IMG/VR virus record: IMGVR_UViG_2511231131_000001
Reading direction: 5' to 3' (one strand)
Source of the DNA: a virus
Lineage: Duplodnaviria > Heunggongvirae > Uroviricota > Caudoviricetes
DNA length: 64,000 nucleotides
Numbering within the stretch: position 1 is the stretch's first letter; each line of letters begins with the position of its first letter. Both the position numbers and the translations under genes were made by a program. Positions 21,436-34,976 of this stretch are shown in pieces. Below the pieces are notes generated by a model, which saw nothing but the letters and a program-made list of their open reading frames with translations, had not been told where the DNA came from and did not search any database.

Positions 21436-21747
21436 TCAATATACGATCTGGTCTACATGATCACCAAAATCATCGTCGTCGTCGTCCTCATCGCCACCAT
21501 CTACTGCTGGCCAATCAACAAACCAGCCAGCGTAAAGATGCAGCGTTCGGAGAACATCACTTGCGGGAGCATCAAGGGTGTTAACGAATCCCATATAGCT
21601 ATTGGGATTTGCCCCAGCTATGGCTTCAGCGATCATGTCCTCGGTAATGTCACCGGAGATAATGCTTAAACGCCCGGAAACTTCTTCATTATCATCAAAT
21701 TCGATAATGGCATCTCCACCTAATGGCGCTGCGATTTTAATCTGCAT
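21436..21747 (-). CDS. Acidic small protein, last gene of the darA operon (hxr position in P1)
   Basis: 103-aa ORF ending in an acidic stretch (DGGDEDDDDDDFGDH); start overlaps the ddrB stop. Confidence 0.45.
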   Translation of the reverse strand: MQIKIAAPLGGDAIIEFDDNEEVSGRLSIISGDITEDMIAEAIAGANPNSYMGFVNTLDAPASDVLRTLHLYAGWFVDWPAVDGGDEDDDDDDFGDHVDQIVY

Positions 21748-24724
21748 TATTTAGCTCCTTTGCCACACCTAATAACAGTTCCAGCAATCCGTCACCATTC
21801 ATCAGTGATGCGGCAGCGGCCTCTTTGTCATGATACAACTGAAGAGCCATAGAGAATACTTCCGTTGCTGACGTTTTGGAAATAGTCGGTGATTTCTGCC
21901 GAATTTTCCCGGTGTTACTTACTGAGGCTGGCGGGTATACCTTCGCCATATAAATATTACTCAATCGAGATCTGAAGCACCATTCAGGCTTGCCACGCCC
22001 ACCGATATTGACGAAAGATGGCTTATCCCCTTCAACATTGGCCTTCAGGAATGACCGGGCTTTCTCTAACAAACCAGGGTTACTGTACTCAAGATGATGA
22101 CCCAGCTCGTGCCACAGTGCACTTGCATTTTCATCGTTCAAATTGACAGCAACAACACCATTTAGATTTGCATATGCCCTTCCCTGGTGGTGAACTACCT
22201 TTGATAAGGTCGATATTTTCCCGCCGGTCAGGCGATAAATATCAGCAAGTTCCTTGCGCAGGTCTATCCCACCATTCTGTCCAGCGCGGGCTTCTTCCAC
22301 TTCTTCTGTGATAAAAGAGTCAGCCCACTCAAGAGCTTTTTCTTCAGATACGGATGAGTTTGCGATCGCACTGTTCATGGCAGATAACACTTTCTCGTGG
22401 ACCGAACCCATACTTCGCTGATTCATTTGCCAGCGTGTCTGCGGGTTATATGAGAATCGCTTAAGTAGTTGGTCAAGCTGCTCAAGTTCTTCTTCACTGA
22501 CATACTTTTTAGCCTCACCAATAATGCCAGGGAGAATATTGCCGTTAGGATTAAACGCTCGCGAAAGGAAGAGTTTCAGCGCCCCCATGCCCTCCGATGC
22601 TTCAATATCACCAATAACCCGGTTAACAATGGCCGCACTCTTCGGATTAGCATCCGCCAAAGCTCTGGCTACGATTTGCAGGGACGATACGACCTCACGC
22701 TGCATATCAGTCCTGATCTCATCAATAAACTCTGGCGTTATGCCGTGCTCTTTAAGGATATCCCGGCCTTCCGCCGTTACCCCATCGATATCACCGACAT
22801 GTTTATTAACACGACTTTGCAATGCCTTAAATGCCTTCAGAATTCCACGGGCATCATCCGCTTTACTAACGGCCTTCCTGAATGCTGGCAAGAAGTCTGA
22901 GTTAACCTCATTTTGTTGATCGGCCCACTGAATGGAGGCTTCTTTCATCTCGTCCAGAGTCAGATCACCCAACGCGGTATGGTCTGTGAATATGAGCGAC
23001 AACCTCTGAACCATTTCTGCCAATGGTGATGCCGAATGCGCCGCGCTAAGGAATGCTTTCACCCTGGTTGGGCGAATGGAAAACCAGTCAATAGCTGGTG
23101 GCATATCTCCGTTTTTTATCGCCTGCGCTATCTCGTCAAAGCCATCTCGCCCAAGGGAAGATGCGTGATTTAACAAGCCGCGAAGTAACGAATTGCTGAT
23201 ACCGAATAATCGGCACCATTTTTTCACGTCGGCAACAGGCATTCGAACAAAATGCGCAAGCACTTGAACAAGCTGTTCATCCTGGGGATCTGCACGGGAA
23301 AGCAGCCTGATCAGATGAATAATATCTTTGATGCCGGATGCCCGATGTAATAGCAAGCTGGTATATGGAGCAACACCGTTGTAACTACCGCCGGAAACGG
23401 ACTCGAAAAGACCGCCGGATATCCCTTGCATGCCTTCGTTTTCCAGTTCCTGAGACACCTGGCGAAGGATATCCTGTAACGACACATCGCCGCCGCCAAA
23501 CATATCCCCCAGCGCCTGGCCCTGGTGCTGTAACTCATCATTGATACGTTGAGCCATCAACTTAAAGGCGGTGGCCATACGCTTCGCGCTACGGTTATTC
23601 GCGACGATGAACAACGCGAGTGCTTTCACTTCCGGGGCCGTTTCGCTGAACATATCCCCCTGAGCAATAACATCGGTAATATGCTGGCCTGACTCCTTCG
23701 ATTGCCTTACCAGGTCTACCGCATCTTTCAATGCCTCCAGCGCCTTTTTATCGAGGCTATCCGCTGTCTCAATGCCATCAACAATAGTTGTCACAGCCTG
23801 CTTGTGCGCTTCTCCTGATAAAGCCTGCATCTGGACAAAATCATTGGCTGCCGCATTAAGCGCCGTCAGAACATTACGCATGTCCGGATCAGGTTCTTCT
23901 GCAACCATCCTTACCAGGCGCGCATCCTTATATGCCTTGGCAAAGATCGCGTTTTGTATACGGTCTACAAGTTGCCGTGTTGGTCGCCCATCTTCAGTTA
24001 CAAGGCCAGCCGCCTGTGTGGCACCAACTTGCGTCATAAATCCGCGAATAAACGCGTCATTACTGCGGCTAAGCAGATCTCCGCTTTCTGACGGGTTAAA
24101 CAACGCCATCATCGCCGGTGTTATGCTGTCGGCATCAACAAAAGCCTTTTCACTGGCTGCCATTTCCTGAAGATCAGAAATATTTGAGTCCTTGGCAAAC
24201 TGAACGCGATCAACCTTAGTTAACCGGCGGCGCACCAGTACCGGAGCCGTCATTGATTCAACCTTTTCAGGCCGTATGCCGAATTCGGTCGCATGTTCAA
24301 TCAGGTACTCCCGATACCGATCCGCATTACCGTCCTGATAGGCTTTAATGATCCCCATGGTCCGCCCATTACCTGACTCAACGGCATTGTCCTCACCAAT
24401 TATTGGCGCGCCATGGCTGGATAAACCGGAATCGGTAAGCTGGGCAGGACGCAAATCCTTGGATATCTGGTTGACCTGAAGAAGGCTGGATGCGCGGGTC
24501 CGGTCGCGCGGCTGAAGTTCCTGGGGATAGTCTGGATTAATTTTCCCATCCAGAGTATTGGATACCAAAAGAACTGAGGCATCGACGATATCAAACGCTG
24601 TTTTTACCTCATCTCCCTTCGCTGTCACCACATACGAAACCCGCCCATAATCGGGCAGGTTCTTTAGCAGCTCGATCAGCGTTTCTATGCTGGTGGCCAT
24701 TACCACCTGATCGCTTAAGCTCAT
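21737..24724 (-). CDS. ddrB: DdrB-like large internal head protein of the Dar antirestriction system
   Basis: 995-aa ORF downstream of ddrA and darA in the same operon; by synteny and size. Confidence 0.55.
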   Translation of the reverse strand: MSLSDQVVMATSIETLIELLKNLPDYGRVSYVVTAKGDEVKTAFDIVDASVLLVSNTLDGKINPDYPQELQPRDRTRASSLLQVNQISKDLRPAQLTDSGLSSHGAPIIGEDNAVESGNGRTMGIIKAYQDGNADRYREYLIEHATEFGIRPEKVESMTAPVLVRRRLTKVDRVQFAKDSNISDLQEMAASEKAFVDADSITPAMMALFNPSESGDLLSRSNDAFIRGFMTQVGATQAAGLVTEDGRPTRQLVDRIQNAIFAKAYKDARLVRMVAEEPDPDMRNVLTALNAAANDFVQMQALSGEAHKQAVTTIVDGIETADSLDKKALEALKDAVDLVRQSKESGQHITDVIAQGDMFSETAPEVKALALFIVANNRSAKRMATAFKLMAQRINDELQHQGQALGDMFGGGDVSLQDILRQVSQELENEGMQGISGGLFESVSGGSYNGVAPYTSLLLHRASGIKDIIHLIRLLSRADPQDEQLVQVLAHFVRMPVADVKKWCRLFGISNSLLRGLLNHASSLGRDGFDEIAQAIKNGDMPPAIDWFSIRPTRVKAFLSAAHSASPLAEMVQRLSLIFTDHTALGDLTLDEMKEASIQWADQQNEVNSDFLPAFRKAVSKADDARGILKAFKALQSRVNKHVGDIDGVTAEGRDILKEHGITPEFIDEIRTDMQREVVSSLQIVARALADANPKSAAIVNRVIGDIEASEGMGALKLFLSRAFNPNGNILPGIIGEAKKYVSEEELEQLDQLLKRFSYNPQTRWQMNQRSMGSVHEKVLSAMNSAIANSSVSEEKALEWADSFITEEVEEARAGQNGGIDLRKELADIYRLTGGKISTLSKVVHHQGRAYANLNGVVAVNLNDENASALWHELGHHLEYSNPGLLEKARSFLKANVEGDKPSFVNIGGRGKPEWCFRSRLSNIYMAKVYPPASVSNTGKIRQKSPTISKTSATEVFSMALQLYHDKEAAAASLMNGDGLLELLLGVAKELNNAD

Positions 24725-24736
24725 CCCTGTTACGCC

Positions 24737-25102
24737 TTATGCTGCCTCTTTAATGTTGGCGGCTATCCATGCCGCCGTGTGCTGTTTAACCTGGTCCAGG
24801 TCGATGTATGTGCCAACATATTGACTCAAATCCTGCAAGGTACCGATAAATGCATCGGTGCTCTGATCGACGAATTTATCAGCCAGGAAATCAGCAACCA
24901 GTTTTGGCACACCATCATGTTCCGAAGGTTGTTTTTCCTCGCCACTACCACCGCCGGACGCGCCGTACCCCATCTGTTGCATGATCTGGTCAATTTCATC
25001 GCTGATATCCAGCAACTCCATGCCACTCGCGGTCGCCGCTTTGGACATCAGAGCATCCAACTTATCGCTGAGATCCATTAACTCAATAGCTGATAGTGTC
25101 AT
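24737..25102 (-). CDS. ddrA: DdrA-like protein
   Basis: 121-aa ORF overlapping the darA stop by 4 nt. Confidence 0.5.
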   Translation of the reverse strand: MTLSAIELMDLSDKLDALMSKAATASGMELLDISDEIDQIMQQMGYGASGGGSGEEKQPSEHDGVPKLVADFLADKFVDQSTDAFIGTLQDLSQYVGTYIDLDQVKQHTAAWIAANIKEAA

Positions 25103-27018
25103 GCCGCTACCCCCGCTTTCTGGATTGCTACCAACAGATCAGCCAGGTGGCGAGCTGCGCCGTTAACCAGCTCTTCGTTTTCCTCAAAACGTCCGGCAGC
25201 CTGAAGGGCTGCAATCGCTTCCCGGACATTGCCCCGGGCGTTACGGATCTCCGCCATGTCAGTGCTTTGTATATCCATCACGTTATTGAGATATTCAATG
25301 GCTTTATTAGCCTCTGCATCTGCTTCGCTAACCGTTTCATCAGGCTGTGCCGGGGCCGGTTCTGGCTGAGTAATCTCACCGACTTCGGCCTGCAATGCAT
25401 TGATCATGCTCTGCACCATTTTCTCGGTGCCAGCGCCCCCAGGAAACGCAATATTGGGGAAAGTTTTTTGAAACTGAGTTTTCAGCATTACGCGGAACTC
25501 GTCTGGTGAGCTGGTGGCCAGCTCCAGAGCTTTTTGTGCATATTTGCCAAACGGACCATTAGTAAGTGTCTTCGCCAGGAAGTCGAAAGAATCCTCGCGA
25601 GGCAATAACTTCAGGTCGTACTCACTCATTTGCTGATCAGAAAGCGGGGTATCGTAAGTAGCAATGCCGTAGCGTGCATATTCATAATACGGGTCACCTT
25701 CATCAGGGCGCGGCAGAATTGCTTTGTTACCTTCAGGTATTGCGCCAGGGGCCGCCGGACGCATTTGCAGGGCATATCGATATGCACCTACAGAGACTTC
25801 TGGTTCAGGCGAAGAGCTACCGGTATCCTCCGCTGGTTCAGGTTCGACGTTTTCCGGTTTATGTTCTTCTGGTTGGACCAGGTATTCCGATACATTACCC
25901 GCTTTATAGGCTTTAAACAGCTTGCCGATCGCATCTGCCATGTCCACACCCTGTATGGATTTAGCCTTGATCATGTATACGCTGCCATCCGGATCGGTTA
26001 ACTGGATATACCCTTCGCCGCCCCCAATGAATTGCTTCATTGATGCACCATTACTGAGCGTCACTTCCCCGTCCATATGCATACGATTTTTGATACTGGC
26101 AAGGCGATCCGTCAGCGCGCGAGAGTGCCCACCAGTCATCCCCGCTGGAGCAATGGTATCGCGCCCACCAGTGCGATTGAGCTGATCAATCTCCGTCTGC
26201 AAACGCTCATTCTCTTCATAAAGAGAATCCGCTTCCGATGCAACAGCGTTAATTTTCTGCTCCAGATCTGCCTTCTGCCCTTCTACCGCTGCCACCTGAT
26301 CCGCGAGGTCGCTCATGGCATCCTCTTTCTGGTCACTGTCAGCCTGTAGTTGGGTTATTTCATCAACAAGGGCTTTTTTCTTCTTCTGCGCACGCTGGAA
26401 TTTTGCCGAGTTTTTCTCTGCAAGGTTGGCAAGTTTCATGGTGACCTGCGCCAGCGTCATATCACGTCCACTCATCGGAGCAACGGTGTGAGTAACGTCT
26501 TTTTTATTCAGTAAGAACTGGAAAGCAACCAGCGTATCGCTATTGGTGATCCGGTTTTCCGCTGTCGGGCTATGAAACAGAATGCTGATAGTCTGACCAT
26601 CACTGAGCGGAATAATGGCTGGCAAGACCGGCAGCCCGTTAACGTTACGTGCCCGGCCAATTTCAGCGCCGCCGATCGCGCGCGCGCCGCTCTGGGCCAC
26701 ATCCCCCGTTTTATCACTCCCCGCAGAGATTCCGGTACCATTCAGCTTCTGGTTCAATGCCCGGACAAATGCCTGCATGGTCCGGTGTAACTGCAAACGA
26801 GTAGAACTAATCGCCTCCAGTAAATCCGTAGCACACCAGTGGATCGGCGTGTCATAGAAGAACGTAGCCTCGATTTCCTCCAGGGTGTTGGATTCCGTCA
26901 TCAGATAGCGGTCCTCACCGGCCATTAATGCGCGATATTCATCATCAGTCACTGGCGGGGGAAGCACGTCAAGCCCAGGCTTGATCGTCACCCCTTTATT
27001 GATATTGAACTGTTCCAT
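25099..27018 (-). CDS. darA: DarA antirestriction / head protein
   Basis: 639-aa ORF, the size recalled for P1 DarA, within the lyd-hdf-darA-ddr operon. Confidence 0.7.
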   Translation of the reverse strand: MEQFNINKGVTIKPGLDVLPPPVTDDEYRALMAGEDRYLMTESNTLEEIEATFFYDTPIHWCATDLLEAISSTRLQLHRTMQAFVRALNQKLNGTGISAGSDKTGDVAQSGARAIGGAEIGRARNVNGLPVLPAIIPLSDGQTISILFHSPTAENRITNSDTLVAFQFLLNKKDVTHTVAPMSGRDMTLAQVTMKLANLAEKNSAKFQRAQKKKKALVDEITQLQADSDQKEDAMSDLADQVAAVEGQKADLEQKINAVASEADSLYEENERLQTEIDQLNRTGGRDTIAPAGMTGGHSRALTDRLASIKNRMHMDGEVTLSNGASMKQFIGGGEGYIQLTDPDGSVYMIKAKSIQGVDMADAIGKLFKAYKAGNVSEYLVQPEEHKPENVEPEPAEDTGSSSPEPEVSVGAYRYALQMRPAAPGAIPEGNKAILPRPDEGDPYYEYARYGIATYDTPLSDQQMSEYDLKLLPREDSFDFLAKTLTNGPFGKYAQKALELATSSPDEFRVMLKTQFQKTFPNIAFPGGAGTEKMVQSMINALQAEVGEITQPEPAPAQPDETVSEADAEANKAIEYLNNVMDIQSTDMAEIRNARGNVREAIAALQAAGRFEENEELVNGAARHLADLLVAIQKAGVAA

Positions 27019-27019
27019 G

Positions 27020-27631
27020 TTAATTTCCTGCTTTCAGTTGCTTAAGACGGCGTTTGAGTTCGCCATTTCGGGCCTTTTCGTTATTGAGTCGGCCTGTCTC
27101 CTTATCCAGCTTCGCCCGCAAATCAGTGATCTGCTGTTGATTGAAAGACACCGAGTTCTGCGCTGATTTATAAGCGGCAACCACCTGAGCATTCCGCTGT
27201 TTTGCCTCTTGCAGGCGCTGAAAGTTGGATTTTACTGCCGGTTTCTTGTCTACCGGATTGGCAACACGTTTCGCTTTGGCGATCAGTGATTTCTGGAATT
27301 TTGCGGAGTTTTTGCGGGCCGCTTGCCCCATGACGGTACCAAGCGTCTTGATATCCGGCGACTGAGCGTTAGGAATAGCTTTTCCATTCAGCCTCACAGA
27401 CGATATATCGCCAGTATCGTTTACCTGTATGGCAAGAATTTGTCCGTCGTTAAGAACCAGCTTTGCGGTTTTAACTTTAACGCCATCTTTCGTTGTTGCG
27501 CGGTTGCTGGAGTCAACCTCAATTACCGTAACACCGGTTTTATTGATCGCCGCGATAAGGGATTTCAGCCCCTTTTCATTAACCTGGTCAAAATCGACCG
27601 TTGCATACTTATTTTTCGTCATCTGACACAT
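27020..27631 (-). CDS. hdf: Hdf-like head morphogenesis protein
   Basis: 203-aa basic protein immediately upstream of darA. Confidence 0.5.
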   Translation of the reverse strand: MCQMTKNKYATVDFDQVNEKGLKSLIAAINKTGVTVIEVDSSNRATTKDGVKVKTAKLVLNDGQILAIQVNDTGDISSVRLNGKAIPNAQSPDIKTLGTVMGQAARKNSAKFQKSLIAKAKRVANPVDKKPAVKSNFQRLQEAKQRNAQVVAAYKSAQNSVSFNQQQITDLRAKLDKETGRLNNEKARNGELKRRLKQLKAGN

Positions 27632-28052
27632 CCTGTGCGAGATTTATTACGTAACTTCTGCGGATTTGCTGAGTAACAGGGAAAATCCGATACAACGGGT
27701 TAATGAACGAGTCGCCATGCGTAACCATGACGTTGAAATGCCACAGTCGCTCTCCTTTACCCATATATTCAGTGGGTATGTACAACCATTCACTGTTTTC
27801 GCCCTGTTCAGCCGACGTCAAACAACGTTGTTCGCCTTCAATCACTGTCGTCGGCTTCTGAACATCGCGGATCCAATATCTGACCGTTGCGCCGCGCAAA
27901 AACGGGAATTTAGACCGGTATTTGAACGGCACCCGGATGAAACCCGGTTTAATTTCCACATCACCAAGTTCTAAATGCGTGATGTCCTTGCGTTTTAGCA
28001 AATAGCGATCGGCTAAGGCTAACGCAAGAACGCATACACCCCAGCCAATCAT
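27609..28052 (-). CDS. lydB: LydB-like antiholin
   Basis: 147 aa with N-terminal hydrophobic segment; follows the holin gene. Confidence 0.45.
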   Translation of the reverse strand: MIGWGVCVLALALADRYLLKRKDITHLELGDVEIKPGFIRVPFKYRSKFPFLRGATVRYWIRDVQKPTTVIEGEQRCLTSAEQGENSEWLYIPTEYMGKGERLWHFNVMVTHGDSFINPLYRIFPVTQQIRRSYVINLAQDVSDDEK

Positions 28053-28378
28053 TTCCCGCCTCCCTTTTTCACCAAACTTGTAAGAACATTCAGAATGCTA
28101 TCGATATTCACTCGTTTCATCCCTGAAATCACCTCATGACCGTTATTGCTGGCTATCGTTACCATTAAGTACGTAATTGATAACTCCCAGCCCTCGTGTT
28201 GCCCCAATAGGTACGCCACCGCGCCAGCTGTCACTGCAACAAAGATCTCCGTAACCAATCCCAACAAATTGCCAGACTGGCGACCGTCTCGGACATCCAT
28301 CAGGAACGTGCCTATCCCACCAATTACTGAAAGCAGGAGCGCAATAGCAACTGGAGCTAATTCCTGTGTGTCAAGCAC
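28049..28378 (-). CDS. lydA: LydA-like holin
   Basis: 109 aa with multiple hydrophobic transmembrane segments and a charged C-terminus (LVKKGGGK). Confidence 0.55.
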   Translation of the reverse strand: MLDTQELAPVAIALLLSVIGGIGTFLMDVRDGRQSGNLLGLVTEIFVAVTAGAVAYLLGQHEGWELSITYLMVTIASNNGHEVISGMKRVNIDSILNVLTSLVKKGGGK

Positions 28379-28452
28379 AAGTTCCCTCCTACGTTGTCAG
28401 GAGGTAATGGTATGCAAAGTAACTTCTCAACCGGTTATGTTGCATAAGAGAC

Positions 28453-28716
28453 TTACCTATTCAACCGACTTTTGGAACCTTCAATAATAAGCCTGCTATT
28501 GGCGCTGAAAATAAGAACCATGCAGCTCTGAAGGCTTTCATTCATGTCCTTATATTCCGCGAGATACATGCCAATAAAGCCAGCAAGTACGGCGGAAATA
28601 CATTCGGCCAGCAATTTCTTGCATGAAGACTCGTAACGGTTTTCACATAGCCCACTCAAATACGAATACACCCCACCAAGAAGGGATAACATCACGATAT
28701 GTACATAAAATGTCAT
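28453..28716 (-). CDS. lydC: LydC-like small membrane protein (holin-like)
   Basis: 87 aa with two hydrophobic segments, upstream of lydA. Confidence 0.4.
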   Translation of the reverse strand: MTFYVHIVMLSLLGGVYSYLSGLCENRYESSCKKLLAECISAVLAGFIGMYLAEYKDMNESLQSCMVLIFSANSRLIIEGSKSRLNR

Positions 28717-28843
28717 TTTTTACCTATACAACAGTAAGTTGAACAACATTTGAGAACGGTATGCACTTTGTGATTTCCACACACACTGGTTTTGTTAATT
28801 AAAACCTGTAGCTTGCAATAAATAACGATAGTGGGCAGAAAAT

Positions 28844-29110
28844 ATGCTAATAGGCTATGTACGCATATAGACAAATGAACAAAACACAGCTATGCAGTGA
28901 AAAGCACTTGAAAGCGCAGGATGTGAGCTAATTTTTGCGAATAAGGCGAGCAGCAAAAAAGCTGGGCACCCTGGGTTAAAAAAGGTTCTGCGTATGCTTT
29001 CCAGAGGTGATACCCTAGTCTCGGACTAGGGACAACATTTCGAGAACAGTTTTCATTAGCGGCCAGCAGGCGCTAGATACATCGAATTGATGTGCCGCGC
29101 GATAAATGTA
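28844..29110 (+). pseudogene. Degraded Hin/Gin/Cin-family DNA invertase gene remnant, convergent with intact cin
   Basis: ATG 28844 gives MLIGYVRI-stop-TNEQNTAMQ-stop-KALESAGCELIF...GHPGLKKVLRMLSRGDTLV, recognisably invertase N-terminus with multiple stops and a deletion. Confidence 0.65.
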
Positions 29111-29151
29111 CCTATTCTATCAAGATAAATTACACCGACGCGGCATTAGAA

Positions 29152-29724
29152 TTACAGCTCAGATTGAGTTTGGCGCTTCTCTACAGGATGATAACGATAA
29201 ATCGTCGATACACCGATATCGTAAATAATTGCCAACTGTTTCCTGCTGTAGCCATTTTCGATCAACCTCGCTATTTGCTCATGTTGTTCTTTTGTCAACT
29301 TCGGGCGACGTCCGCCAATGCGTCCCTGTTCGCGTGCAGCTGCCAGTCCGGCCAGTGTTCTCTCAACAATTAATTCACGTTCCATTTCTGCTAAAGCACC
29401 CATGACATGAAAAAAGAAACGCCCCATGGGTGTTGATGTGTCAATACTGTCTGTCAGACTACGGAAATTAACACCTTTTTCCCGCAACTCCTCTATAAGC
29501 GTGATAAGGTGTTTCATACTTCTGCCAAGCCTATCCAGCTTCCAGACAACCAGCGTATCTCCTTCTGATAACGTTCTGAGCAGCTTTTTCAAGCCTGGTC
29601 TGGCTGACTTTGTTCCGCTTATTTTATCTTCAAAAATCAGTTCACATCCTGCGCAGTTCAGTGCATTTCTTTGTAAATCTGTGTTTTGGTCATTTGTTGA
29701 CACACGAATGTAGCCAATTTGCAT
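29152..29724 (-). CDS. cin: Cin/Min-family serine DNA invertase
   Basis: 190 aa from MQIGYIRVSTNDQNTDLQRNAL...VVWKLDRLGRSMKHL...; closely resembles Hin/Gin/Cin; RBS AAAGAGG. Confidence 0.88.
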   Translation of the reverse strand: MQIGYIRVSTNDQNTDLQRNALNCAGCELIFEDKISGTKSARPGLKKLLRTLSEGDTLVVWKLDRLGRSMKHLITLIEELREKGVNFRSLTDSIDTSTPMGRFFFHVMGALAEMERELIVERTLAGLAAAREQGRIGGRRPKLTKEQHEQIARLIENGYSRKQLAIIYDIGVSTIYRYHPVEKRQTQSEL

Positions 29725-29795
29725 GAAAAACAACCTCTTTGTTTAGTTAAAAATACATCGTTGGTATAGGTAGGGATTAAGACTAAAACGTTGGT

Positions 29796-30263
29796 TTGGG
29801 GGAAGGCTCAGCATTGCCCGTTGGCGTGCCCGTTCCGTGGCCCTTAGAAACACCACCAACGGGCTGGCTGAAATGCAATGGTGCAGCATTTTCTTCTGAA
29901 AAGTATCCAAATCTGGCAAAGGTTTACCCCACCAATAAATTGCCGGATTTACGCGGTGAGTTTATTCGCGGCTGGGATGATGGGCGGGGGATTGACTCTG
30001 GCCGTAATTTATTATCTGCACAGAATGATGCAATTCAGAATATTGTTGGTTCTTTCGGGCGTACTCAGCTTTTTAGAGATGTACTTAGTTCAGGGCCATT
30101 TAGTCAACATGGTCAAGTATTATCTACAGGCCTAAAGGAAACGGAAATTATTGAGGGTTATGGCGCTTATAACTGGACATTCGACGCCTCTCGCTCAGTT
30201 CGTACAGCATCTGAAACCCGCCCACGCAACATTGCGTTTAATTACATCGTAAGGGCAGCATGA
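29796..30263 (+). CDS. Silent alternative tail-fibre C-terminal cassette 1
   Basis: Begins with conserved GEGSALPVGVPVPWP...GWLKCNGAAFS...LPDLRGEFIRGWDDGRG and ends RPRNIAFNYIVRAA, as does the C-terminus of expressed S; variable middle. Confidence 0.7.
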   Translation: MGEGSALPVGVPVPWPLETPPTGWLKCNGAAFSSEKYPNLAKVYPTNKLPDLRGEFIRGWDDGRGIDSGRNLLSAQNDAIQNIVGSFGRTQLFRDVLSSGPFSQHGQVLSTGLKETEIIEGYGAYNWTFDASRSVRTASETRPRNIAFNYIVRAA

Positions 30264-32379: not shown

Positions 32380-34530
32380 TTAAGCCGCCCTCACAATATA
32401 ATTAAATGCAATATTACGAGGGCGGGTTTCTAAGCCAGCAGTACCTAAATTAGCTACGGACTGTTTATATGTTTTAAAAGTTCCATAATTAGGGGCTGGC
32501 AATCCTGCATCGCTTGTGTTCCCCCATCTGATAACTCCCGTATTACCACTAGTAGCCCATGCCTCGTCAAAGTAGAAATTAATTGAGCTGTCAGTTGCTA
32601 CGGTTGATTTTGACGGTAATCCGTGAGCATGATCCTCCGTTGCATATCCTTGCTCGCTTAAAATAGAGCGACCAGAGTCAATCCCTCGCCCATCATCCCA
32701 ACCACGGATAAACTCACCGCGTAAATCCGGTAATTTATTGATGGGATAAGCCTTTGCCAGTTTGGGATACATTTCAGAAGAAAATGCTGCGCCGTTACAT
32801 TTCAGCCACCCTGCTGGCGGTGTGGCTGAGGGCCACGGAACAGGCACACCAACGGGCAGCGCCGAGCCTTCTCCTAAACCAAGGTAATCAAGAACGCTCT
32901 GAATACTGGTCTTACCAAGAATGGCGCGTCCGACACTTGTCAATGCAGTTAACGCGGCACGATCAACACCTGTGAAATAAGGGAGTTTATCTGCTGCTGT
33001 AGCTAGTGCCGCTAGAGCAGTGAGCGTAGCGTCTGCCGCTTGCTTTCCATTAGCCAAATCATATGCAGCCTTGACAGCTTTCGGTGTGGCGGCCAGCACT
33101 TCGGACGTGCTATTAGTAGCACTGCTGAGTTGGACTATCCCTTTTTGAGCCGTGGTTGCATCCTGGGCTGTATACTTCCCGTTAGCCAGGTCATATGCTG
33201 CCTTGACTGCTTTCGGTGTGGCGGCCAGCACTTCGGACGTACTGTCAGTAGCACTACTGAGCTGAGTGATGCCTTTCGCTGTCAATGAAGCTGTTGGCAC
33301 ACCAGTGATCTGATTCCAGGGATGTGTATGACTGGATGGTGCCTTTCCGGCAGCTAGATCGTATGCAGCTTTAACCGCTTTTGGAGTTGCAGCTAATGTT
33401 TCAGAAGTGCTGTTGGTGTCGCTACTGAGCTGAACTATCCCTTTTTGTGTCGTGGTTGCATCCTGGGCTGTATACTTCCCGTTAGCCAGGTCATATGCAG
33501 CCTTGACAGCTTTCGGTGTGGCGGCCAGCACTTCAGACGTGCTGTTAGTGGCACTACTGAGCTGAGTGATGCCTTTCGCTGTCAATGAAGCTGTTGGCAC
33601 ACCAGTGATCTGATTCCAGGGATGTGTATGACTGGATGGTGCCTTTCCGGCTGCTAGATCGTATGCAGCTTTAACCGCTTTTGGAGTTGCAGCTAATGTT
33701 TCAGAAGTGCTGTTAGTGTCGCTACTGAGCTGAACTATCCCTTTTTGTGTCGTGGTTGCATCCTGGGCTGTATACTTCCCGTTAGCCAGGTCATATGCAG
33801 CCTTGACAGCTTTCGGTGTGGCGGCCAGCACTTCGGACGTACTGTTAGTGGCACTACTGAGCTGAACTAATCCCTTTTGCGTTGTGCTTGCATCCTGCGC
33901 CGTATACTTGCTTTTCGCCAGATCGTAGGCTTTTTTAACTGCCAGCGAACTCGCAGCAACATCACTTCTGGTACTGGTTACAGAGTCTGAAATATCAATG
34001 CCGATCGTGCGGTTGATACGCTCGGATGTATCAATCATCTCTTGAGTAATGGTAGATACGCCAGCAGGGATATTCACCGTACAAACCAGCAGTTCCCCAT
34101 CACCTAACTGATATGAATCGGTATAGGTTCTGGCAACAAATTCAGCTGCATGAATATGTGACGCGGTATTCACCTGATAGGTATCTTCTCCAAGAAGGTA
34201 TCTTCCCTTCAGCACAATTGCATATTTCTTGCCTGCGTTAAGTGCAAGAGAGATATCCTTACGATGCTGAATAGTTACCTGGTAGAATTCACCAATATCC
34301 ACTGACGCCGCGCCAGCGGTTTTATCTCCATCCACTGAGGTGATTAACAGGTTCATCCCACCGCCAGGCTTAGGCAAGAAACCAGCATAAAATCCCGGGT
34401 CAACAATTCCCCTGAATTTTCGGTTTAGAGCGGCTGACAGATATGGTTCGTGGTATTGCACATCAGCCACCAGAGCCAACGACTCGGGTGATGGGTAAGT
34501 AACCGATGTAACAACTGTAACGTCATTCAT
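32380..34530 (-). CDS. S: Tail fibre protein S (constant N-terminal part fused to currently expressed variable cassette 5)
   Basis: 716 aa from MNDVTVVTSVTYPSPESLALVADVQYHEPYL; repeated fibre motifs; C-terminal 166 aa homologous to the silent cassettes. Confidence 0.85.
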   Translation of the reverse strand: MNDVTVVTSVTYPSPESLALVADVQYHEPYLSAALNRKFRGIVDPGFYAGFLPKPGGGMNLLITSVDGDKTAGAASVDIGEFYQVTIQHRKDISLALNAGKKYAIVLKGRYLLGEDTYQVNTASHIHAAEFVARTYTDSYQLGDGELLVCTVNIPAGVSTITQEMIDTSERINRTIGIDISDSVTSTRSDVAASSLAVKKAYDLAKSKYTAQDASTTQKGLVQLSSATNSTSEVLAATPKAVKAAYDLANGKYTAQDATTTQKGIVQLSSDTNSTSETLAATPKAVKAAYDLAAGKAPSSHTHPWNQITGVPTASLTAKGITQLSSATNSTSEVLAATPKAVKAAYDLANGKYTAQDATTTQKGIVQLSSDTNSTSETLAATPKAVKAAYDLAAGKAPSSHTHPWNQITGVPTASLTAKGITQLSSATDSTSEVLAATPKAVKAAYDLANGKYTAQDATTAQKGIVQLSSATNSTSEVLAATPKAVKAAYDLANGKQAADATLTALAALATAADKLPYFTGVDRAALTALTSVGRAILGKTSIQSVLDYLGLGEGSALPVGVPVPWPSATPPAGWLKCNGAAFSSEMYPKLAKAYPINKLPDLRGEFIRGWDDGRGIDSGRSILSEQGYATEDHAHGLPSKSTVATDSSINFYFDEAWATSGNTGVIRWGNTSDAGLPAPNYGTFKTYKQSVANLGTAGLETRPRNIAFNYIVRAA
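33060..33900. repeat. Tandem direct repeats of 300-bp period inside S (about 100-aa protein repeat)
   Basis: 33181-33480 and 33481-33780 near-identical with partial copies flanking; encodes repeated YTAQDATTTQKGIVQLSS.TNSTSE.LAATPKAVKAAYDLA. Confidence 0.8.
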
Positions 34531-34541
34531 CAAGCATATCC

Positions 34542-34976
34542 TTATGCTGTAGTCGAGTTTATGGCCATAACTGCGGTATATGTTTTGCCCACATACAGCG
34601 AGTCTTCCTGGACACAAATAATGGCGATTGGCTTATTCTCGTTATCCAGAACAACCAGAGTGTTGAATGGGTAGTTTTTCCCTTCCTGCAACTGACTTTG
34701 ATCAAGGTCCATTCGGACAGTAATTATCCCGCCTGAGTAGGTTGGGACGAGGTTGATGGTGCAAAATTGACTGGTCAGTTCTGCCAGATCGAAAGCCTTT
34801 GGCAGTTCTCCAATCTCATAAGTGCCATCTCCTTTCTTAGTAACCAGTGAACTGGTACCGAAAACGGCCTTGCTGATTAAAAATCGAGAGCCTTTGTTAA
34901 TGGACGATTCAGCGCGCCGCTGATAGTAATAGTCCAACAACTGACTCTTATAGAGGTTTGTTGAGACGTCAGACAT
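34542..34976 (-). CDS. R: Tail fibre-associated protein R
   Basis: 144-aa ORF immediately upstream of S; by synteny with P1. Confidence 0.5.
   Translation of the reverse strand: MSDVSTNLYKSQLLDYYYQRRAESSINKGSRFLISKAVFGTSSLVTKKGDGTYEIGELPKAFDLAELTSQFCTINLVPTYSGGIITVRMDLDQSQLQEGKNYPFNTLVVLDNENKPIAIICVQEDSLYVGKTYTAVMAINSTTA

Follow-up and report, generated by a model that had tools for sequence, protein, structure and literature searches.

The window, that is, the whole 64,000-nt stretch of DNA analysed here, represents a P1-like phage-plasmid whose tail-fibre inversion region is of the p15B/Min type. A short plus-strand fragment facing its invertase gene, psi-cin, is in our reading the inactive 5' stub of the resident cin gene, left behind after a foreign min module replaced the resident cin module (probability roughly 0.85). 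The first-pass annotation had read the interval 28844-29152 as one invertase gene with an internal deletion. The interval instead consists of three stacked relics, which, together with their neighbours, are given below with strand and, in parentheses, the basis of each assignment.

28755..28843, plus strand: relic of the cin upstream region, the intergenic region beside lydC (P1 alignment).
28844..29020, plus strand: psi-cin, corresponding to codons 1-59 of a P1-type cin (alignment, translation, Pfam).
28862..28933, plus strand: stretch homologous to the recombinational enhancer of P1 cin, which spans cin nt 19-90, P1 31678-31749 (P1 annotation, alignment).
29033..29087, minus strand: relic of a tail-fibre tip (Sv) gene of the Min type, about its last 20 codons (alignment, translation).
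29088..29151, minus strand: Mu/BcepMu-like phage right end, the terminal 64 bp (prophage ends, Mu alignment).
29152..29724, minus strand: intact Min-type DNA invertase, 190 aa, WP_001165547.1 (ORF, RefSeq).

Aligned by blastn, P1 cin matched 28844-29020 at 88.7% identity over 177 nt with 0 gaps (E = 5e-64), and identity over the same 177 nt was 86.4% for the cin gene of P7 and 83.6% for that of D6. Similarity to pin, min and gin extended over 94 nt at 74-77%; for the adjacent min it was 75.5% over the first 94 nt. On this identity pattern the fragment is classed as a cin orthologue of the P1/P7/D6 clade and not as min, pin or gin; a relationship to pin, considered as a separate candidate, was rejected on the same grounds. 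The stub also lies at the locus of P1 cin itself, downstream of lydC and in the same orientation, which is likewise the cin site in P7 and D6. Homology extends into the flanking DNA, with 28755-29020 (the cin upstream region plus codons 1-59) aligning to P1 31570-31836 at 89.5% with one gap. When its stops were masked, the translated stub matched the Pfam Resolvase family (PF00239) at E = 2.8e-9 and 37.6 bits (cutoff 23.3), and this match spanned profile positions 2-68 of 145 only, leaving the domain incomplete. The earlier recognition of a dead gene fragment of the Hin/Gin/Cin family was therefore sound, with similarity to cin running over the full 177 nt.

Read in frame 1 from 28844, the stub translates as MLIGYVRI-stop-TNEQNTAMQ-stop-KALESAGCELIFANKASSKKAGHPGLKKVLRMLSRGDTLVSD-stop. 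Codon 9 is TAG (28868-28870), whereas TCA stands at this place in the cin genes of P1, P7 and D6 and in min, pin and gin, so that the catalytic Ser of the YxRVST motif is missing, and codon 19 is TGA (28898-28900), replacing CGA. The earlier count of at least three stops holds for these two, which fall inside the homologous part; the third in-frame stop, at codon 62, lies beyond it. Homology to cin stops after codon 59 (GDTLV) and codons 60-186 are missing. The stub is thus without the catalytic core past codon 59 and without the DNA-binding domain, and the uninterrupted ORF of ~185-195 codons with its C-terminal helix-turn-helix domain is absent. What had been taken for an internal deletion is a truncation: no similarity to cin, min, pin or gin was detected by blastn in 29021-29152, nor did three frames of that interval yield any Pfam family at E<=10. 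The peptide LTDSIDTS, previously thought to resume the gene beyond the deletion, is a spurious resemblance. We regard it as coincidental because, in a D6-like relative discussed below (L003), the part of cin that genuinely codes for SIDxxTP lies upstream of the sequence homologous to the 'ALDTSN' stretch in the window.

Codon changes and the state of the upstream region both bear on whether the stub is used. Relative to P1 cin, the stub carries 10 nonsynonymous and 7 synonymous codon changes, compared with 5 nonsynonymous and 24 synonymous changes for P7 and D6 cin against P1 cin (Fisher p = 0.008). The ratio of 10:7, set against 5:24 between functional cin genes, indicates that constraint on the stub is relaxed. 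In the upstream relic the predicted P1cin -35 hexamer TTTCCA is kept at 28774-28779. The -10 hexamer reads TAAAAC at 28800-28805 where P1 has TAAAAT, the Shine-Dalgarno GAG has become GGG, and the P2cin region has diverged; a promoter scan found no sigma-70-like site on the plus strand. As far as can be judged from its bases, the stub itself does nothing, as it lacks the catalytic Ser and the DNA-binding domain, carries two stops, and has a damaged -10 hexamer and Shine-Dalgarno sequence. Overall, psi-cin probably has no function.

It had been suggested that the remnant may retain an enhancer, and the homologous stretch is indeed present. Of its two putative Fis cores, the distal one, GCGCAGGATGTGAGC (28914-28928), is unaltered, and the proximal one, at 28866-28880, has changed from TATCAACAAATGAAC to TATAGACAAATGAAC (TCAAC to TAGAC). 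The two cores were placed by the Fis consensus and a rule of 48 bp from centre to centre, and not by a footprint; the spacing between them is unchanged relative to P1. Three remnants were aligned with seven functional invertase genes, and 0 of the 7 functional family members shared the change in the proximal core, in which AG has taken the place of CA at positions -4 and -3 of the consensus. The same two base changes create the first stop, at codon 9. There was also no sign of extra conservation, with 10 changes in the 72 nt of the enhancer stretch relative to P1 and 10 in the 105 nt that make up the rest of the stub (p = 0.47). We infer that the two substitutions behind the loss of the Ser codon probably inactivated the enhancer homologue as well. 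The psi-cin enhancer of p15B was reportedly found to be inactive by Sandmeier et al. in 1991, and two nucleotide substitutions are said to activate it.

Retention of the stub as a second, distant Fis-dependent enhancer for Min-mediated inversion is highly improbable, even though several observations would suit it. A 34-nt block that includes the putative distal Fis site shows no variation in any cin gene or in any of the three types of remnant, nucleotides 1-177 are without an indel, so that the spacing of the Fis sites is kept, and the enhancers of this family work at a distance (PMC3798978). The scar is also old, having outlasted the ~15-20% divergence between P1-like and D6-like lineages, and such long persistence could hint at some use. 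However, the proximal core is altered at two consensus positions, unlike in the seven functional genes, the enhancer stretch is conserved no better than the remainder of the stub, min carries an enhancer homologue of its own, located in its 5' part, and in L003 a 2-nt deletion shifts the spacing between the sites. Among 23 window-type copies, 0 of the 8 polymorphic sites fell in nt 1-115 (p ~0.04, weak), a count biased by the search pattern, which itself fixed 23 positions of nt 1-115; with so few variable sites, this comparison was dropped as a test of selection on the enhancer. A use in transcription is scarcely credible either. The relic cin promoter would have to fire and produce an antisense RNA over the 3' end of min, which would tune the amount of invertase and the inversion frequency. 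Stub and min do converge, the plus strand of 28844-29152 is without a terminator-like site, and the predicted P1cin -35 hexamer survives. Yet the last T of the -10 hexamer is gone, the P2cin region has diverged and the plus-strand promoter scan came back empty; moreover, the P1 cin promoters are predictions only, with a 21-nt spacer, and the upstream region of L003 is unrelated.

The intact gene opposite the stub is not cin, as it had been called, but Min-type. Its product is an exact match of UniRef Q05517_ECOLX, occurs on at least 1000 contigs, and shares 83% amino-acid identity with PinE, 74% with Cin and 73% with Gin. The two genes lie tail-to-tail, with the stop side of min facing the stub, and the convergence of the fragment with an intact invertase gene was correctly seen in the first pass. 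So was the acquisition of a second invertase module, with the roles reversed: the comparisons identify the fragment as the resident cin and the intact gene as the incomer. The working invertase in this class of P1-like phage-plasmids is consequently Min-type and not Cin, and the open frame upstream of min warrants no annotation as a recombinase. Strong mix sites are located at 29785, 30263, 30780 and 31294, and a search within the stub for a cix- or mix-like crossover site gave chance-level matches only.

The 130 bp between the two genes can be read as a record of module exchange between phage families. Nearest the stub lies the tip-gene relic, whose minus strand encodes ..FDVSS..AANENCSRNVV as compared with ..LDASKIVPTANENRPRNIAFNYIVRAA-stop in intact tips. 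In one of the loci compared (L099), the Sv segment CDS matched the relic at its 3' end, with 73% identity over 56 nt (E = 4e-6). The longer homologue in L003, which translates as QFDASCVGPTTNENHPCNVDLNCIV, matched the 3' ends of tail-protein genes over 83 nt (E = 2e-8), with identities of 75-77% across 69 plasmids. The ending ..RPRNIAFNYIVRAA is of the Min type and not of the P1 Sv' type, and the recipient inversion region would therefore have been unlike that of present-day P1. At 29087/29088 the tip relic is cut by the phage end. A perfect 8-bp palindrome, CCCTAGTC-TCG-GACTAGGG (29013-29031), lies across the point where psi-cin meets the tail-fibre relic and forms a hairpin in the minus-strand fold. 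What looks like a direct repeat, ACAACATTT(C)GAGAAC, with one copy at 28745 and the other at 29033, was absent from the output of the repeat search; we treat it as coincidence because its right-hand copy is part of the tail-fibre relic.

The remaining 64 bp, read on the minus strand, are the right end of a Mu/BcepMu-like phage. They begin TGATGTGCCGCGCGATAAATG, carry a second GATAAAT repeat at 29123-29129, and include, immediately past the stop codon of min, a terminator-like hairpin (29132-29146). This segment aligns with the true Mu right end, in the terminal MuA-site region, and in chromosomal prophages at different sites the homology begins exactly at the terminal TG. The terminal 21-mer was found in 35 loci from many Enterobacterales species, many of which have an invertase as the last gene, and the flanks outside it all differ, except for a P1-like contig (L101) that shares the flank of the window. 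A reference prophage (L098) encodes Mor, Gam, ExeA and a DDE transposase, has TTCTT(C) on both sides, and carries the terminal repeat TGATT..GATAAATG. The segment thus matches the ends of prophages whose last gene is an invertase and whose target site is duplicated over 5 bp; the window differs from such prophages in having one end only, joined to plasmid tail-fibre DNA. A second phage end, the 5-bp target duplication and the other genes of the phage are absent from the window. With transposase genes missing, the phage end is a fossil rather than a mobile element.

From this arrangement we infer an order of events. The module of a P1-like ancestor (the 3' part of cin, cixL and the C segment) would have been replaced by min together with a multi-segment tail-fibre region. 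Within the resident inversion region, a Mu-like phage probably inserted into a tail-fibre tip gene at its 3' end, after which recombination between co-oriented phage and plasmid tail-fibre genes would have led to loss of the rest of the prophage, and one or more deletions would have taken everything from cin codon 59 to the end of the tip gene. The min module has the Mu-type layout, in which the invertase is transcribed away from the invertible DNA, and for this reason the two genes would have come to be convergent. We lean, with some reserve, towards the view that the whole Min module of p15B-type plasmids arrived by Mu/BcepMu-like transposition into the tip gene and was then trimmed by recombination. 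If so, a temperate phage-plasmid gained a host-range switch from the right end of another, transposable phage, and the scar was inherited by both P1-like and D6-like lineages. Transposition followed by recombination of tail-fibre genes would be a concrete mechanism for the transfer of host-range cassettes between unrelated temperate phages.

Two other origins were weighed. An inverted duplication, proposed in the first-pass annotation, would make the fragment a decayed inverted copy of the neighbouring invertase. The two genes do belong to the same family, converge, and share the similar 94-nt stretch, but 75.5% over 94 nt to the neighbour compares poorly with 88.7% over 177 nt to P1 cin plus ~90 bp of upstream homology, the fragment sits exactly at the cin position of P1, P7 and D6, and a tail-fibre relic and a phage terminus separate the two genes. 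On these alignments an inverted duplication is excluded, its probability being practically negligible. The other possibility is that the min module came without transposition, through recombination, whether illegitimate or homologous, with a chromosome or phage, and that the Mu-like terminus is donor sequence that was carried along and marks the boundary only by accident. This would fit the missing second end and target duplication, the freedom with which P1-like elements swap tail-fibre modules, the 99.5% identity of min between P1-like and D6-like backbones with its sharp drop at the stop codon, and the different invertase and junction in Salmonella phage SJ46. We nevertheless consider it unlikely. 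Homology to the prophages ends exactly at the terminal TG, the joining point of transposition, which makes an illegitimate crossover at that very site improbable, and the outside flank is plasmid-type tail-fibre DNA, unlike the chromosomal flanks of the prophages examined. Replacement of the resident cin module by a foreign min module, with transposition as the probable route of delivery, remains our preferred account, and the Mu-like end is a modestly new clue to the origin of the Min module.

The same layout occurs in p15B of E. coli 15T- (EMBL X62121), in which a truncated cin 5' region is likewise convergent with min. According to the P1 GenBank record, P1 31570-31832 corresponds to p15B 7147-7408 at 89% with one gap, close to the 89.5% and one gap seen for the window. 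The same record places the p15B min enhancer at 6463-6533, from which the two ATG codons come out ~880 nt apart, just as they are in the window (29724-28844). The 1991 p15B paper by Sandmeier et al. is said to name the truncated cin psi-cin. Judging by the coordinates in the P1 record and by what the abstract of the 1991 paper reportedly states, the stub in the window is apparently the published psi-cin of p15B. Since the p15B layout is reproduced and the haplotype is common, the stub must count as already known, and in itself it matters little, being a pseudogene apparently described in p15B more than 30 years ago. We know of no description of a Mu-like terminus and a tail-fibre relic in the gap of p15B. 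Searches of the literature text for psi-cin, or for a pseudogene of cin, brought up nothing relevant, the original p15B and P1 genome papers lying outside the searched text.

Compared with P1 cin (and that of P7 and D6), the window has the same locus, orientation, upstream region and enhancer stretch; it differs in being without codons 60-186, cixL and the C segment, and in its two stops and damaged -10 and Shine-Dalgarno sequences. Salmonella phage SJ46 carries, at the same backbone position, a truncated ORF (YP_009293494.1) that is also a cin 5' stub convergent with a foreign invertase. In the ~233 nt of cin that it keeps, a frame of 74 codons is open and the putative Fis sites are intact, and the neighbouring invertase differs, at 56% identity to Min; the SJ46 stub is independent of that in the window. 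The D6-like plasmid L003 (pEc-050-T5-MAC_3), whose cin stub likewise faces a foreign invertase at this backbone position, keeps more on both sides of the junction, ~296 nt from cin and 73 nt from the tip gene, and has the same phage end as the window. PGAP lists the L003 stub (LNN49_RS25045) as a frameshifted, incomplete recombinase pseudogene; automated annotation flags the stub only sometimes.

Two further searches concerned the neighbourhood of the stub. A 31-nt similarity to Klebsiella phage pJN2-26 was put down to chance (E = 0.03, inside an unrelated hypothetical gene), and the interval 28300-29900 gave no Rfam-type RNA family at E<=1. Of 79 loci from IMG/VR, 22 had the haplotype of the window, each with min at an identical distance; the haplotype was also present in 146 PLSDB plasmids and in 171 of 5,426 complete E. 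coli genomes (~3%). Many P1-like phage-plasmids of this class carry resistance genes, for example mcr-1.

The window is a P1-like (Punavirus) phage-plasmid laid out for multiple inversion in the manner of plasmid p15B of E. coli 15T-. The features in and around the invertase remnant (psi-cin, the stub, 28844-29020, plus strand) are:

21737-28716, minus strand: ddrB, ddrA, darA, hdf, lydB, lydA, and lydC
28862-28933: homologue of the P1 cin enhancer
29013-29031: perfect palindrome CCCTAGTC-TCG-GACTAGGG, at the junction of psi-cin and the tail-fibre relic
29033-29087, minus strand (antisense): tail-fibre tip relic of Min type (3' end, last ~20 codons), directly outside the phage end and cut by it
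29132-29146: terminator-like hairpin in the minus-strand RNA downstream of min
29152-29724, minus strand: intact invertase gene (min), 190 codons
29785, 30263, 30780, and 31294: crossover sites, one before each of four tail-fibre tip segments
between the tip segments and gene S: tail-fibre assembly gene
32380-34617, minus strand: gene S

The first-pass annotation translated the frame from 28844 correctly as far as GDTLV, and the invertase-family fragment it proposed is real, as established by a gapless alignment of 28844-29020 to codons 1-59 of P1 cin (88.7% identity, E = 5e-64) and a Pfam Resolvase match of the stub peptide with stops masked (E = 2.8e-9, over the curated cutoff; profile positions 2-68 of 145). 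Identity of the stub was 86.4% with P7 cin and 83.6% with D6 cin, while its match to the adjacent intact gene, pinE, and gin (74-77%) covered the first 94 nt only. Homology to P1 began ~90 bp upstream of the stub ATG and spanned the predicted cin promoters, Shine-Dalgarno (SD) sequence, and enhancer annotated in P1. The stub adjoins lydC and is directed away from it, the same placement as cin in P1 and P7, whereas D6 is without lydC and its cin adjoins lydA. This upstream homology and cin-like position beside lydC show that the stub is the resident cin and did not arise by copying its neighbour; an inverted duplication, one of the origins initially proposed, is excluded.

The stub carries several lesions. 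Codon 9, the catalytic serine codon and TCA in 7/7 functional genes compared, has become TAG; codon 19 has changed from CGA to TGA; and cin sequence beyond codon 59 is absent. The -10 hexamer reads TAAAAC for TAAAAT and the SD sequence GGG for GAG. Relative to P1, the stub has 10 nonsynonymous and 7 synonymous codon changes, as against 5 and 24, respectively, in functional P7 or D6 cin, an excess of nonsynonymous change (Fisher p = 0.008) that indicates neutral decay.

Against P1, 10 of the 72 positions in the enhancer homologue have changed, as have 10 of the other 105 in the stub (p = 0.47); the homologue is thus conserved no better than the remaining stub. Two putative 15-bp Fis cores, 48 bp apart, were placed by inference from the Fis consensus rather than from a footprint. 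Of the enhancer-like sequence that the first-pass annotation suggested looking for, the putative distal core (GCGCAGGATGTGAGC) is intact and lies within a 34-nt block invariant across all cin genes and all remnants, but the putative proximal core, TATCAAC... in cin genes (close variants that keep TCAAC in other functional genes), reads TATAGAC... in the window. The two altered bases are the same ones that turn the serine codon into TAG. In 1991, Sandmeier and colleagues reportedly named the p15B stub psi-cin and found its enhancer inactive but activatable by two nucleotide substitutions, a result that the proximal-core change fits. In the D6-like remnant, 2 nt are missing between the putative cores, and the remnant of Salmonella phage SJ46 keeps both. 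A second enhancer is an unlikely role for the stub. A source of antisense transcript is likewise improbable, and the stub region matched no known RNA families. Most likely, the stub has no function.

The intact neighbour had been called cin, which reverses the roles. The gene is another member of the family: its product is 74% identical in amino acids to Cin and 83% to PinE, and exactly matches UniRef Q05517_ECOLX (on at least 1000 contigs). Its convergence with the stub reflects a gin-like arrangement, the 5' end lying beside invertible DNA as in Mu. In phage vB_EcoM-813R1, a 98.9%-identical record, the min-type gene (L002 3953-4524) is annotated as two CDS, Hin1 and Hin2, a split that suggests a frameshift or sequencing error of that record.

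A second invertase segment, claimed past an internal deletion, was not borne out. All three frames of 29021-29152 matched no Pfam family, blastn of this interval found no invertase similarity, and in the D6-like plasmid pEc-050-T5-MAC_3, which keeps more of cin, the sequence homologous to ALDTSN of the window comes downstream of the segment that truly encodes SIDxxTP.

Chromosomal prophages whose last gene is a min-like invertase show homology, at their extreme end, to the 64 bp directly past the min stop codon (29088-29151). For two of these prophages, one beside ppiD and one beside aroA, alignment to each other and to the window begins exactly at TGATG(C/T)GCCGCGCGATAAATG. One of the two, in the E. 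coli WP3-S18-ESBL-08 chromosome, is a ~37-kb Mu/BcepMu-like element encoding Mor, gp16, Gam, ExeA, and a DDE transposase, with common terminal repeats TGAT...GATAAATG and TTCTT(C) flanking both sides. This 64-bp segment can likewise be aligned to the genuine right terminus of Mu, TGAAGCGGCGCACGAAAAACG...CACGATAAATG. The terminal 21-mer TGATGTGCCGCGCGATAAATG, common to prophage ends, was found at 35 loci in many Enterobacterales species; their outside flanks are all unrelated, except for one P1-like contig whose flank is identical to the window's, and in about half an invertase ends 68-112 nt inside. Together, the prophage-end homology, the Mu alignment, and the unrelated 21-mer flanks show that the min module ends at a transposable-phage terminus, the right end of a Mu/BcepMu-like element. 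Compared with shuffled sequences, the minus-strand RNA past min forms a more stable fold (z = -2.96). It carries the hairpin at 29132-29146, belongs to the phage end, and may simply terminate min transcription.

The WP3-S18-ESBL-08 prophage occupies about L098 2916-39964, between ycaL and aroA. Its order is BcepMu-like, the early region being reversed compared with Mu; its tail-fibre region is invertible, and the flanking TTCTT(C) is a duplication. Relatives occupy many other chromosomal sites.

Outside the phage end, the relic at 29033-29087 matches the 3' end of an Sv segment in another plasmid (73% over 56 nt, E = 4e-6). In 69 plasmids, 3' ends of tail-protein genes match the better-preserved relic of pEc-050-T5-MAC_3 (L003 3297-3369; E = 2e-8), whose translation is QFDASCVGPTTNENHPCNVDLNCIV where the intact tip has ..FDASRVVPTANENRPRNIAFNYIVRAA*. 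The C-terminal motif is of Min type, unlike P1 Sv'. The left arm of the palindrome is cin codons 57-59; template switch and coincidence are candidate origins.

The scar between lydC and min comprises psi-cin, tip relic, and phage end. The D6-like scar retains cin to about nt 296 and then 73 nt of the tip gene. It contains the window's version, in which cin runs to nt 177 and some 55 nt of tip gene follow, so that a single additional deletion of about 135 bp could have produced the window type from such a form. The scar is old: P1-like and D6-like plasmids share only 80-84% identity across it. Min, by contrast, is ~99.5% identical between the window and pEc-050-T5-MAC_3 (29088-29800 compared), with the drop directly past its stop codon; evidently, the functional module was swapped recently, on top of a scar that was already old. 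We propose that a Mu-like phage, its late genes co-directional with plasmid gene S, transposed into the tip-gene end of the inversion region in a cin-bearing ancestor. The prophage body would then have been lost by recombination between the two co-oriented tail-fibre genes, of phage and plasmid, and a subsequent deletion would have removed DNA from cin to the tip-gene stop. The pseudogene flagged initially is real, and of low interest in itself. To our knowledge, the Mu-like terminus and tail-fibre relic beside psi-cin have not been described before, and they offer a testable account of the origin of the Min module.

An independent event is seen in SJ46, whose junction differs and whose invertase is only 56% identical to Min; at least two displacements of cin have therefore taken place. 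The SJ46 cin stub (L006 2599-2823), a 74-codon open frame annotated "DNA invertase," is convergent with an invertase gene at 2955-3536. Further decayed cin alleles were observed among IMG/VR loci L017, L024, L041, L054, L058, L085, L087, L074, and L053: in one class, a short deletion with a frameshift follows codon ~43 and no convergent invertase is nearby, the L074 allele is cut by an IS26 inverted repeat (GGCACTGTTGCAAA), and that of L053 has lost its start codon.

The P1 GenBank record (Lobocka et al.) gives 89% identity and one gap for P1 31570-31832 against p15B nt 7147-7408, and it separately matches the cin enhancer to p15B nt 6463-6533, inside min. The min ATG lies ~880 nt from the stub ATG in p15B (converted coordinates) and 880 nt in the window (29724-28844), so the window has the p15B arrangement. 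As far as established, the stub is already known as psi-cin of p15B. The same layout has been noted in pMCR_SCKP-LL83 (PMC5786510), 99.8% identical to the window. In PGAP annotation, the D6-like version is a recombinase pseudogene, frameshifted and incomplete, and the window-type copy has no annotation. The haplotype is common: it is present in 146 PLSDB plasmids, in 171 of 5,426 complete E. coli genomes, and in 22 of the 79 IMG/VR loci bearing the conserved cin block, the spacing to min being constant in these 22.

The four strong crossover sites share one orientation in the present isomer, each heading a tip segment that starts ..GEGSALPVGVPVPWP; their partner within gene S (near 32876) is a weak match. 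In the interval that separates the min start from the first mix site, 29747-29770 is a degenerate copy of the first crossover-site region (29777-29800; 75% identity, 30 bp upstream) and could be a quasi-site or relic site. In its constant part, gene S carries long, almost perfect tandem repeats of a ~50-residue motif, ..TAQDA(S/T)TTQKG(I/L)VQLSS(A/D)TNSTSE(V/T)LAATPKAVKAAYDLA.., a feature also of p15B.
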